Virus record (IMG/VR): IMGVR_UViG_2711768002_000013
Direction: 5' to 3' (one strand)
DNA length: 53,159 bases
Origin: a virus
Taxonomy: Duplodnaviria; Heunggongvirae; Uroviricota; Caudoviricetes
Part shown: in pieces, positions 50,500 to 52,783 of the stretch
How positions within the stretch are numbered: position 1 is the stretch's first letter
How the letters are laid out: each line of letters begins with the position of its first letter
Notes under the pieces: model-generated
The model's database searches: none
Told to the model about the DNA's origin: nothing
What the model saw: the letters and a program-made list of their open reading frames with translations, nothing else
Made by a program: the position numbers and the translations under genes

Positions 50500-50511
50500 A
50501 AAAGTCCCCTA

Positions 50512-50559
50512 CACTGTATTTGTATACAGTATTATTTTTAACTGTATGGATAAACAGTG
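50512..50559. promoter_or_regulatory. Two tandem LexA (SOS) boxes in the int-dinI intergenic region
   Basis: CACTGTATTTGTATACAGTA (50512..50531) and AACTGTATGGATAAACAGTG (50540..50559), both CTGT-N8-ACAG with AT-rich spacers. Confidence 0.7.
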
Positions 50560-51657
50560 TCAAGAGGTCTTATTTCTGCTCCTTTGGAGTTCTTCAAAAC
50601 GATTATGTAAAGATTTCGGATACAGTTCGGTATATACCTGCCATAGCACGTTTAATGAACGATGCCCTGTAACCTGAGCGACTTCCTCAATACTAAAACC
50701 AGCCTCAAATAAGCGACTTGCCCCTTCTCTACGCAAATCATGGTATCTCAGATCTTTAATACCTAATTTGCTTCTTACCCTCTGAAATCCTGCGGTAACA
50801 GAAGTGCTGTTATATGGAAAAATGAATTCTGATTTTTTGGGTTGTCGCTGGACGATATCCCAGGCTTCCCCAAGCAAGGCAACTTTCATATGGTTGCCTT
50901 CCTTTTTACGTGGATCTTTCCTGTCTCTTACTAGTATAGATTTTTGTTCCTGGTCGAGATCTTCCCATCGTAACCGGCATACTTCTCCGATTCGCATACA
51001 GGACCACACAGAAAATTTGAGGATATCAACGAACGGAATTTTTGAGCATTTATGAGTAGATCGTTGTTGAAGGCCTTCAATGAGCATGTTCAGTTCATCA
51101 GATGCTGGTCTACGATTACGACGGTTTGATTTACCAATCAAACCGAGTTTAAGTAGATATGGACGAGCGCTTTTCGCCGGGTTTGATGTGTAATTGATTC
51201 CGTATACAGGTTTTGCCGCATCCAGAACACTGCCAAGATAACTAACATCGTGGCTGACTGTTGCTGGGCCTGCACCAGCGTTGTTTCTTAGCCTGCAATG
51301 TTCAATTACGTCATTTTCTGTCAGTTCAGATAGTTTGATCGCGGAGATGTCACTATCCATAAGCAGTTCCAGCACATATCTTTTAGTACGGCCTGCTTTA
51401 CCTCCGGCATTTGGGTCATTTAAATATTTGTGTAGTAAGTCACGGACTGTAAGTCCGTCAACAGCATTTGATGATGGAATGCCATATAGATCTAATTCCA
51501 TCACTTTCTGTGCGCCCCATGTTTTGGCATGAGCATGTTTAGGGAATGTTTTGCTTTCCCTGTAAGTGATAACACCTTTTTCTTTGATAATCACATTACA
51601 GCGATAGCGTGGTGTGCCATCGGATTTTAGTCGTTTCTCTATGTTATAGTACGCCAT
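50560..51657 (-). CDS. Tyrosine integrase adjacent to the dusA 5' end
   Basis: 365 aa with tyrosine-recombinase region (..RYHDLRREGASRLFEAGFSIEEVAQVTGHRSLNVLWQVY..); start 88 bp from and divergent to dusA. Confidence 0.85.
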   Translation of the reverse strand: MAYYNIEKRLKSDGTPRYRCNVIIKEKGVITYRESKTFPKHAHAKTWGAQKVMELDLYGIPSSNAVDGLTVRDLLHKYLNDPNAGGKAGRTKRYVLELLMDSDISAIKLSELTENDVIEHCRLRNNAGAGPATVSHDVSYLGSVLDAAKPVYGINYTSNPAKSARPYLLKLGLIGKSNRRNRRPASDELNMLIEGLQQRSTHKCSKIPFVDILKFSVWSCMRIGEVCRLRWEDLDQEQKSILVRDRKDPRKKEGNHMKVALLGEAWDIVQRQPKKSEFIFPYNSTSVTAGFQRVRSKLGIKDLRYHDLRREGASRLFEAGFSIEEVAQVTGHRSLNVLWQVYTELYPKSLHNRFEELQRSRNKTS

Positions 51658-51745
51658 TACACGACCTCGTTATTTCGGGTTCCCATAAAGCGTGGGAACC
51701 TGTGCGGGAACCTAACGCGAGAAAAATAGCCTGAAATGTTCAAAA

Positions 51746-52783
51746 ATGCACGATAATCCTGAAACACAGAAAACTAATCAAACCAGCGTGATGCCTGAAA
51801 AAACTGGCGCTTACTGGAGTTCTCGGTTTAGCATTGCTCCTATGCTCGACTGGACGGACAGACATTGCCGCTATTTCTTGCGTCTGCTTTCCCGCAATAC
51901 GTTGCTGTATACCGAAATGGTGACCACAGGGGCGATTATTCACGGTAAAGGTGATTACCTGGCGTACAGTGAAGAAGAACATCCGGTAGCGTTGCAACTC
52001 GGCGGTAGCGATCCGGCGGCGCTGGCACAGTGTGCGAAGCTGGCAGAAGCGCGTGGATATGATGAGATCAACCTGAATGTCGGCTGCCCGTCTGACCGGG
52101 TGCAGAACGGCATGTTTGGTGCGTGTCTGATGGGTAATGCGCAGCTGGTTGCCGACTGCGTGAAAGCGATGCGCGATGTGGTGTCGATTCCAGTGACGGT
52201 GAAAACGCGTATTGGCATCGATGACCAGGACAGCTATGAATTTCTCTGCGATTTCATCAACACCGTTTCCGGCAAAGGCGAGTGTGAGATGTTTATCATC
52301 CACGCACGTAAAGCCTGGCTTTCGGGGTTAAGCCCGAAAGAAAACCGTGAAATCCCGCCACTCGATTATCCGCGTGTGTATCAACTGAAGCGTGACTTTC
52401 CGCATCTGACAATGTCGATTAACGGTGGTATCAAGTCGCTGGAAGAGGCCAAAGCACACCTGCAACATATGGATGGCGTGATGGTCGGGCGCGAGGCGTA
52501 TCAGAATCCGGGTATTCTGGCGGCGGTAGACCGGGAGATCTTTGGTTCCTCGGATACCGATGCCGATCCGGTGGCGGTAGTGCGCGCCATGTATCCGTAC
52601 ATTGAGCGTGAACTCAGCCAGGGGACGTATCTCGGCCATATTACCCGGCATATGTTGGGCTTGTTCCAGGGTATTCCTGGCGCGCGGCAGTGGCGGCGTT
52701 ATTTAAGTGAAAATGCCCATAAAGCGGGTGCAGACATTAATGTGCTGGAACACGCGCTCAAACTGGTGGCGGATAAGCGTTAA
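51746..52783 (+). CDS. dusA: tRNA-dihydrouridine synthase A
   Basis: 345-aa ORF with Dus-family motifs (..[16 protein letters not shown].., ..[10 protein letters not shown].., ..VTVKTRIG..); pspG follows as in the E. coli chromosome. Confidence 0.9.

Follow-up and report, generated by a model that had tools for sequence, protein, structure and literature searches.

Genes of the DinI family are typically regulated by LexA. In the Salmonella prophages Gifsy-1, -2 and -3, a LexA box immediately precedes a dinI homologue, which opens a damage-inducible transcription unit of several genes, the dinI-antirepressor-irsA operon (Lemire et al. 2011, PMC3121763). LexA control of the Gifsy dinI homologues has been shown by experiment, with induction of 5-23-fold (PMC3121763, PMC8072944). 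Chromosomal dinI of Salmonella has two LexA boxes, at 19 and 42 bp (PMC8072944), and in a microarray study a dinI-like gene with the array locus tag c0943 changed alongside sulA, umuD, recN and dinI (PMC2817434). Closest in sequence to the locus described here are the dinI cassettes of mEp460 (gp21) and VT1-Sakai (H0001), the latter of which carries in its GenBank record the annotation 'LexA protein, putative SOS box' together with a 'putative promoter of H0001 and H0002'.

The second described system that bears on the locus is Eco3DRT10/UG17, in which an ncRNA, a SLATT gene and a reverse transcriptase (RT) gene follow one another in this order (Tang et al. 2025, PMC12632851; Sanchez-Nieto et al. 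2026, bioRxiv 10.64898/2026.04.29.721553). DRT10 has been characterised as a constitutively active system with independent transcription (bioRxiv 10.64898/2026.04.29.721553), and the literature has its ncRNA transcribed independently from a native promoter. Tandem-repeat cDNA synthesis and phage defence have been shown for Eco1-3DRT10 and for the E3659 system. ssDNA metabolism is known to gate DRT10 (SbcB, phage SSB-like triggers). The published Eco3DRT10 work contains no discussion of an upstream dinI/LexA context, which is the arrangement that we describe here.

In the window, by which we mean the whole analysed stretch of 53,159 nucleotides, the two systems stand next to each other on the minus strand in the order integrase, dinI-like gene, leader, membrane protein and RT, as the sequence-only reading had correctly given it. 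The integrase is a tyrosine integrase of the dusA-targeting type (50560..51657, minus strand; Pfam Phage_integrase), and dusA adjoins it both in the window and in relatives. The host gene itself (51746..52783, plus strand) marks the right junction of the prophage, according to the ORF list and the RefSeq annotation of identical loci. Lysogens that carry exactly this locus include E. coli O177:H21 (NZ_CP016546) and O25b:H4 (NZ_CP015085). The mEp460 and VT1-Sakai cassettes are 92-97% identical to the window over the dinI gene and its promoter, and all three share the position at the prophage right end by int/att and a layout of -35, box, -10, box; the mEp460 integrase is of the dusA type as well. 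The three differ in what lies behind dinI. mEp460 carries no cargo, so that behind its dinI come a T-run hairpin and the tail-fibre gene, in this order, and VT1-Sakai has a small YkgJ-like gene downstream of dinI, whereas the window has DRT10, with a hairpin beyond the RT.

With the end of the integrase ORF at 50560 and the dinI-like ATG at 50499, the two LexA-type boxes fill the 60-bp gap between the genes. Box 1, proximal to the gene, occupies 50512..50531 (CACTGTATTTGTATACAGTA; TACTGTATACAAATACAGTG on the minus strand), and the distal box 2 occupies 50540..50559 (AACTGTATGGATAAACAGTG; CACTGTTTATCCATACAGTT on the minus strand). Both have perfect CTGT/ACAG arms and an AT-rich spacer, and they match the 20-bp consensus TACTGTATATATATACAGTA at 17/20 and 15/20 positions. 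CTGT-N8-ACAG occurs only twice in the window (50514-50529 and 50542-50557), against an expectation of 0.52 per window. An approximate position weight matrix, based on 25 E. coli LexA sites from the literature, scores the boxes at 23.3 and 21.4 bits, compared with a training median of 19.6 bits, 11.9 bits for the next-best site in the window and a maximum of 17.4 bits across 20 shuffles. These scores resemble those of validated E. coli SOS boxes.

A promoter scan placed a promoter-like site in the same interval, with 10/12 matches at its hexamers: a -35 hexamer TTGACA (50558..50563, minus strand, read from 50563 to 50558), an 18-nt spacer and a -10 hexamer AAAAAT (50534..50539, minus strand) that ends at 50534. 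The -35 hexamer is conserved with and without the integrase, and the same promoter is annotated in the mEp460 record. The stop codon of the integrase, TGA (50560-50562), lies inside this -35 hexamer. Box 2 falls in the -35/-10 spacer; box 1 starts 2 nt past the -10, covers the predicted transcription start and leaves 12 nt to the ATG. With operators placed over both the spacer and the start, bound LexA would block RNA polymerase. The earlier claim that the boxes lie between the integrase stop and the dinI-like start and overlap the promoter is thus borne out by the gene ends and by the scan. The region 50500-50560 is an ordinary prophage dinI promoter of an already annotated type, with LexA binding and DNA-damage inducibility predicted from its operators.

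The architecture is conserved well beyond the window. Both boxes recur in all 12 distinct promoter variants, which come from 23 loci in other prophages and in phages such as mEp460 and VT1-Sakai; they stand at -32/-33 and at -60 to -62 from the ATG and score 15.7-24.3 bits. The footprint that this gives is only modest because the variants are 70-100% identical overall. Upstream of the -35, the sequence is unrelated between prophage contexts. The dinI cassette is present in 103 phage records, including mEp460, the cdtI phage and Stx-converting phages, and a query with 48000-51700 hit 1970 of the 5426 E. coli genomes; among the weaker hits that were sampled, many consist of the dinI cassette alone. 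Box scores, the Pfam assignment of the gene, this conserved architecture and the putative SOS box annotated in VT1-Sakai at the site homologous to box 1 agree in supporting LexA-type boxes at a dinI-like gene.

The dinI-like gene (50251..50499, minus strand) encodes 82 aa and is predicted to be a RecA-filament-binding protein of the DinI family (Pfam PF06183, 1.1e-19; 70.9 bits, with the cut-off at 24.2, over profile positions 1-63 of 63). Residues 1-81 align end to end with E. coli DinI (1GHH) and conserve TWESAD(E/D)WFV; in the C-terminal acidic helix, an 11-residue segment aligns with ETWESADDWFV of 1GHH. This acidic helix of DinI reportedly contacts RecA (Voloshin et al. 2001). The DinI fold, the acidic helix motif and boxes near the ATG are common to the window gene and to the chromosomal dinI of E. 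coli and Salmonella, from which the window gene differs in being phage-borne and in lying under the cut-off of the NCBIfam DinI equivalog model NF007893. As it reaches 73 bits of the 111 set by that model, the protein is a paralogous DinI-like protein and not the chromosomal orthologue. A preprint on EHEC radioresistance was dropped as evidence for the prophage gene, its subject being the chromosomal dinI.

The leader, membrane protein and RT behind the dinI-like gene are a DRT10 system, consisting of a UG17 RT, a SLATT_5 effector and an ncRNA of ~137 nt. The RT (48129..49505, minus strand; RefSeq start at the ATG at 49499) matches PADLOC RT_UG17 over its full length (1.1e-158) as well as Pfam RVT_1, in agreement with RefSeq, and its translation contains the YVDD active site within RYVDDILIL. 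The effector (49477..50028, minus strand) is a two-transmembrane protein (Pfam SLATT_5, 1.3e-28; PADLOC RTasSLATT, 1.5e-56) whose gene overlaps that of the RT by 23-29 nt. Gene order, overlapping genes and ncRNA architecture are shared with Eco3DRT10. A retron msr/msd, prompted by inverted GGGGCAGG/CCTGCCCC repeats, was considered and dropped, as PADLOC assigns the RT to UG17 and the literature defines such systems as DRT10.

The predicted ends of the ncRNA (50047..50183, minus strand) come from the numbering of Eco3DRT10 (137 nt, template C107-C115; PMC12632851), which was transferred through the Eco3-type template found in the sibling alleles L025, L041 and L047. Covariation across 15 homologues supports the fold: its 35 base pairs are intact in 98.7% of cases, compensatory changes occur at 15 of them, and its score was reached by 0/500 shuffles. 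SL1 is its basal stem (50172-50179 paired to 50053-50060). The fold also has four inner hairpins and, at ~50063-50080, a template loop, which reads CAAC-GGUUC-CAAU in an A-B-A' pattern. An Rfam scan of 47900-51800 (E up to 1) assigned no family to the leader; all that it returned was a truncated IS009 match in the tail-fibre-assembly gene and two chance miRNA matches.

The three sibling alleles (97% RT identity) carry the exact Eco3 template CAAUGAUUC followed by CAAU, whereas the window allele differs from it by two substitutions (CAACGGUUC), giving a predicted cDNA repeat of GAACCGTTG against GAATCATTG in Eco3. By this comparison, in which the link to Eco3 rests on the published 9-nt motif found in the siblings, the window system is a close allele of the published Eco3DRT10. 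By likeness to Eco1-3DRT10 and E3659, it is predicted to synthesize tandem-repeat cDNA and to defend against phages. A tblastn search of a phage collection with the RT found only relatives at or below ~25% identity, so that this DRT10 is carried by none of the isolated phages in the collection.

DRT10 is low-GC cargo in the hotspot between the tail-fibre genes and dinI. The GC content drops to 30-34% over 48000-49800, and homology breaks exactly at the stop codon of the dinI-like gene. The system has its own promoter (TTGACT, 18 nt, TG-n-AATAAT; 50190..50219, minus strand), identified by the promoter scan and by conservation across genera, and it is exactly at the -35 of this promoter (TTGAC) that DRT10 conservation between genera begins. 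In other dusA prophages the cargo position is occupied by type III secretion effectors. Besides the E. coli loci, this DRT10 clade has SOS-box genes nearby in two further lineages. One is Buttiauxella, with umuDC upstream; the other comprises the loci L051-L053, where the sequence beyond the RT contains a LexA box and, in L052 and L053, a dinI-like gene after it.

We consider it very probable that the locus combines a LexA-repressed sigma-70 promoter of dinI, a conserved end cassette and a DRT10 cargo that is transcribed from its own promoter, with read-through from one into the other being incidental. The 60-bp interval from the integrase stop to the dinI-like ATG would act as the repressed promoter, with one operator in the -35/-10 spacer and the second over the transcription start. 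Upon DNA damage, RecA-stimulated self-cleavage of LexA would release transcription of the dinI-like gene, and its product would most likely bind RecA filaments and tune the co-protease activity of RecA, as chromosomal DinI does. Promoter and gene together form an end module conserved in many lambdoid prophages of E. coli, and the gap between this module and the tail-fibre genes serves as a cargo hotspot, filled here by DRT10 with a promoter of its own. DRT10 takes up the position at which relatives carry the terminator of dinI, and for this reason part of the SOS-induced transcription probably enters it. We regard this read-through as an incidental result of the insertion and not as part of the design of the system, which is a judgement.

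As for the signals between the two units, the sequence-only reading had proposed a hairpin as a possible imperfect terminator. The arms GGGGCAGGAT (50053-50062) and ATCCTGCCC (50081-89), followed by TTCCGCTTTT on the minus strand, are indeed present in the sequence; the proposed role as a terminator found no support. The pairing GGGCAGGAU/AUCCUGCCC (50053..50089, minus strand) joins the 3' arm of SL5 with the 3' arm of SL1 and competes with the ncRNA fold: it is 53.7% paired in the 15 homologues, no better than in shuffled or slid controls, and in the window ncRNA it is a minor conformer (-55.7 vs -59.0 kcal/mol, P ~0.03). The terminator scan did not report this hairpin, which has a loop of 18 nt and a U-run that is interrupted in the tail UUCCGCUUUU. 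This tail (50043..50052, minus strand) follows SL1, contains the inferred 3' end of the ncRNA at 50047 and is only partly conserved among homologues. With a long loop, an interrupted U-run and a pairing that is not conserved, the hairpin does not fit a Rho-independent terminator, which would have a short GC-rich stem, a loop of 3-8 nt and an unbroken U-run right behind it; it represents an alternative fold within the ncRNA of DRT10 and no dedicated terminator.

The scan of 47900-51800 predicted no minus-strand terminator at all. Relatives have terminators after dinI, which are missing at the same place in the window. The GC-rich hairpin at 48031..48066, which lies between the tail-fibre-assembly gene and the RT stop, resembles the post-dinI hairpin of mEp460 and of L001, as judged from the sequence and by comparison with these two, but it is without a minus-strand T-run.

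As no intervening terminator is predicted, SOS control of DRT10 is physically plausible; DRT10 being self-contained, with its own promoter and ncRNA, such a link is only a possible one. An alternative to the incidental read-through that we prefer is therefore a functional SOS operon, in which the LexA promoter drives one transcript of dinI-like gene, ncRNA, SLATT and RT, DRT10 levels are deliberately raised by DNA damage or prophage induction and the linkage has been selected. We consider this unlikely. The two units are co-oriented, only 66 nt separate the dinI stop from the inferred ncRNA start, and the intrinsic terminator that relatives have after dinI is absent. Downstream of the ncRNA promoter, the scan found no promoter-like site for SLATT and RT until inside the SLATT gene, so that, with these genes lacking a promoter of their own after the ncRNA, the 3' structure of the ncRNA must let polymerase through. 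dinI also heads a LexA operon in Gifsy (PMC3121763) and according to the VT1-Sakai annotation, and in Buttiauxella umuDC lies directly upstream of DRT10 and co-oriented with it, with no terminator found between them when one was looked for. The dinI/DRT10 junction is kept in 9/9 sampled RefSeq E. coli loci that have the DRT10 block, across three prophage contexts. However, the junction sequence matches across the loci examined, which fits a single insertion spread by recombination between conserved flanks.

Comparison across genomes likewise argues against a selected linkage. The promoter of DRT10 itself is conserved across genera, and dinI lies within 4 kb of the system in 0/14 genome homologues from other genera. 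In viral contigs dinI is missing from the upstream flank or, as in L052 and L053, lies downstream of the RT. The E. coli-type loci L041 and L047 keep DRT10 with only a 3' stub of dinI and have lost the LexA promoter, an IS2 separates dinI from DRT10 in L055, and in the yecD-context lineage dinI is a frameshifted pseudogene. Cloned related systems show constitutive defence and cDNA synthesis. Three DRT10 papers make no mention of LexA, SOS or DinI, and our literature search for an SOS or LexA link to DRT10 or SLATT found none. We are equally doubtful that insertion of DRT10 between the dinI-like stop and the position of the terminator in relatives wired defence into the SOS regulon, with the SOS-box neighbours reflecting a real functional link. 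If it did, transcription from the de-repressed LexA promoter would, after DNA damage or prophage induction, continue across the ncRNA as far as SLATT and RT, and SOS read-through would shift the ncRNA:RT:SLATT balance and the threshold of DRT10.

The opposite arrangement, in which the units are insulated, appears to us quite improbable. Here the 3' structure of the ncRNA and UUCCGCUUUU would stop the transcripts of dinI and of the ncRNA, and SLATT and RT would be expressed from an unrecognised internal promoter, blind to SOS. In keeping with such a stop, the inferred ncRNA 3' end at 50047 lies 6 nt past the basal stem and within the U-rich tail (Eco3DRT10 numbering; PMC12632851), relatives show a discrete ncRNA of ~137-143 nt by experiment, and a local hairpin of 9 bp is able to form right before the tail in the E. 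coli allele. That hairpin, however, is neither conserved nor more than thermodynamically minor, and the terminator scan has no match at the ncRNA 3' end, where the 18-nt loop and interrupted U-run described above are found. The gap from the ncRNA to the SLATT ATG is only ~18 nt and has no promoter-like site. Transcription of SLATT and RT must start somewhere upstream.

We find it highly improbable that the region behind dinI encodes a small LexA-controlled antirepressor that induces the prophage, as in Gifsy, where such a gene follows dinI in the same LexA operon (PMC3121763). A minus-strand ATG ORF of 46 aa does exist (50041-50181), but it lies entirely within the ncRNA, the conservation there is that of an RNA structure with compensatory pair changes, and experiments in relatives have defined this region as the ncRNA to which the RT binds. 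It is part of the DRT10 module and not of the prophage backbone, and we rejected a small-ORF reading of the leader on the covariation of the ncRNA. No Gifsy-type antirepressor gene follows dinI in the window, where the DRT10 ncRNA and genes stand instead. The two loci differ in other respects as well: the Gifsy operon has one box and lies near the replication genes, whereas the window has two boxes at the prophage end, and the downstream gene in Gifsy is an antirepressor needed for induction, whereas what lies downstream in the window is a defence system that is autonomous and brings its own promoter. A chance origin of the two CTGT-N8-ACAG motifs in AT-rich intergenic DNA has a negligible likelihood and is effectively refuted by their position, score and conservation, for although at least two matches occur somewhere in 5/100 window shuffles, these two lie inside 46 bp, interlock with a promoter immediately upstream of a member of a LexA-regulated gene family, far exceed the best shuffled score and are conserved across prophage contexts.

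Under the reading that we prefer, of a LexA-repressed dinI cassette followed by a self-promoted DRT10 cargo, the feature itself adds little, because it is an SOS promoter of the textbook kind, belongs to an accessory gene of a prophage and has been annotated in phage records before. It is of practical use to those who work on DRT10, as it places an Eco3-type system of E. coli directly behind a strong predicted LexA-repressed promoter. With such a promoter upstream and no intervening terminator predicted, native expression of DRT10 may differ from its constitutive behaviour on plasmids. If the read-through is real, ~3% of E. coli genomes (188/5426) would carry a toxic abortive-infection module whose level shifts under DNA-damaging antibiotics.

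The right end of the window is that of a lambdoid prophage integrated at dusA (51746-52783), followed by pspG as in the matching RefSeq loci. On the minus strand, the tyrosine integrase (50560-51657) is followed by an 82-aa DinI-like ORF (50251-50499), a 222-nt non-coding stretch, a 183-aa SLATT_5 ORF (49477-50028) and a 458-aa UG17 reverse transcriptase (RT) ORF (48129-49505). Two LexA boxes lie in the 60-bp gap that separates the integrase stop from the 82-aa ORF, box 1 (CACTGTATTTGTATACAGTA, 50512-50531) and box 2 (AACTGTATGGATAAACAGTG, 50540-50559); they are the only two matches to CTGT-N8-ACAG in the whole 53 kb (0.52 expected). An approximate LexA weight matrix, built from 25 E. coli sites known from the literature, scores them at 23.3 and 21.4 bits (training-site median 19.6), against at most 11.9 bits for any other site in the window and 17.4 for the best among 20 shuffles. 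Box 2 forms the -35/-10 spacer of a predicted sigma-70-like promoter (TTGACA 50563-50558, 18 nt, AAAAAT 50539-50534), and box 1 starts 2 nt past the -10 and ends 12 nt ahead of the ATG. The two boxes that the sequence-only reading had placed between the integrase stop and the dinI-like start are borne out in every detail, by sequence, motif count, weight matrix and promoter overlap. The -35 hexamer TTGACA also contains the integrase stop TGA (50560-50563), and integrase transcription therefore enters the LexA-occupied promoter directly.

The 82-aa protein belongs to the DinI family (Pfam PF06183, 1.1e-19, full-length domain), and its alignment to E. coli DinI (PDB 1GHH) extends from one end to the other and takes in the C-terminal TWESAD(E/D)WFV helix. 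Its score of 73 bits with the NCBIfam model of the chromosomal orthologue, below the cut-off of 111, marks it as a phage-borne DinI-like paralogue.

We searched 5426 complete E. coli genomes by megablast with window 48000-51700, which matched 1970 of them. Many of the weaker matches sampled span 50251-50568 alone, that is, dinI and its promoter, and homology on the cargo side breaks exactly at the dinI stop codon. This cassette lies at the right end of prophages at dusA (where the integrase adjoins it), yecD/aspS and prfC, and in 103 phage records, among them mEp460, the cdtI phage and many Stx-converting phages. Both boxes are kept in 12 distinct promoter variants (23 loci), at -32/-33 and -60/-62 from the ATG with scores of 15.7-24.3 bits, and the sequence upstream of the -35 is unrelated among integration contexts. 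In the VT1-Sakai GenBank record the proximal site is already labelled 'LexA protein, putative SOS box', and the promoter 'putative promoter of H0001 and H0002'; the mEp460 record carries the promoter and a 'RecA filament binding protein DinI'. In the Salmonella Gifsy prophages, where dinI heads an operon under LexA regulation, this control of the dinI homologues was shown experimentally (PMC3121763), and nalidixic acid raises these homologues 5-23-fold (PMC8072944). Microarray work found a dinI-like gene (array locus tag c0943) to co-vary with sulA, umuD, recN and dinI (PMC2817434). The conserved cassette, the record annotations and these experiments therefore support well the proposal of a LexA-regulated dinI-like gene, and such control of prophage dinI-like genes is already known. 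The feature itself appears to be an ordinary SOS-regulated prophage dinI-like promoter, of a kind annotated in other records.

The genes downstream of this cassette form a DRT10 defence block: the 458-aa protein is a UG17 RT (PADLOC RT_UG17, 1.1e-158) and the 183-aa protein its SLATT_5 partner (Pfam, PADLOC). The block has a GC content of 30-34%, against about 45-50% in its flanks, and is present in 188 of the 5426 E. coli genomes at 95.9-100% identity. It replaces type III effector genes that occupy the same position in other dusA prophages, and the region from the tail-fibre genes to the prophage end is a classic cargo hotspot. Elsewhere in the window, the Lom-family gene is apparently split into two ORFs of 114 and 76 aa (44051-44588), and the tail-fibre gene lies in two pieces (44647-46008 and 45969-47432), the first with an Arg/Pro-rich end that seems to be read in the wrong frame, which points to frameshifts in the Ala/Ser-rich repeat region. 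A truncated Rfam IS009 match (47900-47973; 72.6 bits, gathering score 117) falls within the 3' end of the tail-fibre-assembly gene.

The stretch that the sequence-only reading had listed as a leader is indeed present in the minus-strand order, and covariation and cross-genus conservation identify it as the DRT10 ncRNA with a promoter of its own. An alignment was made of the 165 nt preceding SLATT in the window and in 14 homologues (RT identity 57-83%) from Xenorhabdus, Photorhabdus, Buttiauxella, Pseudomonas and Stutzerimonas. RNAalifold returned a basal stem, four hairpins and an open template loop, with 98.7% of cells paired and compensatory changes in 15 of 35 pairs; none of the shuffles and slid controls came near this pairing, and the fold agrees with the literature, which describes a large central stem bearing smaller stem-loops. 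Similarity between genera starts exactly at a -35 TTGAC, with a -10-like element 17-18 nt further on, and the genera compared have no common sequence upstream of it; the promoter (50219-50190, minus strand; TTGACT, 18 nt, TG-n-AATAAT, from scan and conservation) therefore belongs to the mobile DRT10 module, in agreement with the reported independent transcription of the ncRNA from its native promoter.

In the template loop of sibling E. coli alleles (L025, L041, L047), CAAUGAUUC is followed by CAAU; the first is the Eco3DRT10 cDNA motif GAATCATTG of the literature in reverse complement and the second its A' repeat, and the window system is thus a close allele of Eco3DRT10. Transferred Eco3 numbering gives a 137-nt ncRNA (50183-50047, minus strand), in agreement with the promoter-based start. 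The template loop (50063-50080, minus strand; also seen in L025, L041, L047 and L051-L053) varies among near-identical E. coli alleles: the window type, GUU-CAACGGUUC-CAAU, occurs in 18 loci, the Eco3DRT10 type, CAAUGAUUC-CAAU, in three, and a third, CAACGAUUC, in three. For the window allele, a GAACCGTTG repeat with A/A' homology of only 3 nt is predicted, and an alternative 8-nt register, GUUCAACG/GUUC, is also possible.

The hairpin proposed earlier as an imperfect terminator (plus-strand arms GGGGCAGGAT, 50053-50062, and ATCCTGCCC, 50081-50089) proved to be part of this ncRNA, as covariation, fold energies and terminator criteria agree: it pairs the 3' arm of the inner stem-loop SL5 with that of the basal stem SL1. 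Its 18-nt loop, its interrupted U-run and the lack of any report in the terminator scan rule it out as a terminator. Across the 15 sequences this pairing reaches 53.7%, with a single compensatory cell, and does not exceed the shuffled or slid-register controls. Folded alone, the window ncRNA adopts the conserved structure as its minimum (-59.0 kcal/mol, against -55.7 for the best structure with the alternative hairpin), with pair probabilities of about 0.97 for SL1 and 0.03 for the hairpin. A longer fragment with a 5' extension folded into the alternative pairing, which suggests an accessible, minor conformer. The hairpin is peculiar to E. coli and Xenorhabdus alleles, where SL5 resembles SL1. 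The SL5 stem of the E. coli allele, GAUCCUGCC/GGCAGGAUC (50080-50098), repeats SL1 GGGGCAGG/CCUGCCCC (50053-50060/50172-50179), so that two mutually exclusive folds are possible; the Pseudomonas homologues have as SL5 a short GAUCC/GGAUC hairpin of unrelated sequence.

We then considered whether SOS transcripts reach DRT10. In favour of this, the scan predicted no minus-strand terminator within 47900-51800. In relatives, an intrinsic terminator follows dinI (L005 and L004 by scan; L001, L006 and mEp460 by fold and alignment), and in the window a related hairpin (48031-48066), lacking a minus-strand T-run, is found past the RT stop, which puts the cargo between dinI and the site where its terminator used to be. 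The 3' end inferred for the ncRNA lies within the U-rich tail, 6 nt past SL1, so some termination or processing would occur there. The scan found no promoter-like site between the ncRNA and the SLATT ATG, and SLATT and RT must therefore be transcribed through this end; polymerase that passes it from the ncRNA promoter should also do so from the dinI promoter. Some read-through from the dinI promoter into DRT10 is likely, and it is probably incidental.

A selected, functional link seems unlikely. The dinI/DRT10 junction is kept in all nine sampled RefSeq E. coli loci, across three prophage contexts, which counts for coupling, but its sequence matches across the loci examined, which counts against a designed one and would fit a single insertion spread by recombination between conserved flanks. 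None of 14 genome homologues from other genera has dinI within 4 kb, and among viral contigs the relatives at 62-83% identity lack an upstream dinI. Two E. coli loci (L041, L047) retain an intact DRT10 with a 3' dinI stub of only ~120 nt and no LexA promoter; the dinI 5' half and LexA promoter are replaced there by unrelated sequence (L041 1411-1535; RT identity 97%). In L055, an IS2-like element (937-2210; IS3 family, ORFs of 136 and 301 aa) separates the dinI stop from the DRT10 promoter; it lies in the opposite orientation, and the RT match in this locus is partial. In the yecD/aspS-context lineage (L003, L026-L028), the upstream dinI is annotated as a frameshifted pseudogene, despite which both LexA boxes and the promoter are intact. 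Published DRT10 systems function constitutively from their own flanks, and three papers on DRT10 make no mention of LexA, SOS or DinI. The coupling of the RT system to the SOS response is, as an idea, unsupported.

SOS genes or LexA-like sites lie near DRT10 in other arrangements too. In a lineage with 78% RT identity (L051, L052 and L053 5766-6773), a LexA box lies 1.4-2.6 kb past RT, and ABC-transporter genes, with no phage genes, lie upstream. In L052 and L053 this consensus-like box (TACTGTTTATTTATACAGTA) precedes an 83-aa dinI-like gene on the RT strand; being downstream of RT, they make read-through to DRT10 impossible there. In L053 the dinI-like gene is followed by an ORF resembling a LexA-type winged-helix DNA-binding domain in sequence. 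In Buttiauxella sp. B2 (L009 1394-3470) and L057, a co-oriented umuD-umuC operon whose LexA box (TACTGTATATAAATACAGTT) is near consensus immediately precedes the DRT10 homologue, and no terminator was detected in the AT-rich spacer of about 180 nt. This makes a second case, independent of the first, of an SOS operon next to DRT10. In a Pseudomonas sp. (L014 5449-5486), a pair of neighbouring LexA-like sites (20.9 and 14.9 bits) closely follows the RT stop of the DRT10 homologue.

From their position and scores, LexA dimers on both operators would block the -35/-10 spacer and the start site. On DNA damage, activated RecA would trigger LexA self-cleavage and the dinI-like promoter would fire. 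This step is established for the SOS regulon. For the Gifsy dinI homologues, LexA-dependent firing is established as well (PMC3121763, PMC8072944). By homology, the DinI-like protein would bind RecA filaments and modulate co-protease activity; no induction phenotype resulted from deleting dinI in the Gifsy prophages (PMC3121763). Conservation shows both the promoter of DRT10 (50219-50190) and the ncRNA fold; DRT10 would be expressed from this promoter, with the ncRNA released and SLATT and RT probably translated from read-through transcripts. To this expression, SOS transcripts may plausibly add through read-through from the dinI-like promoter.
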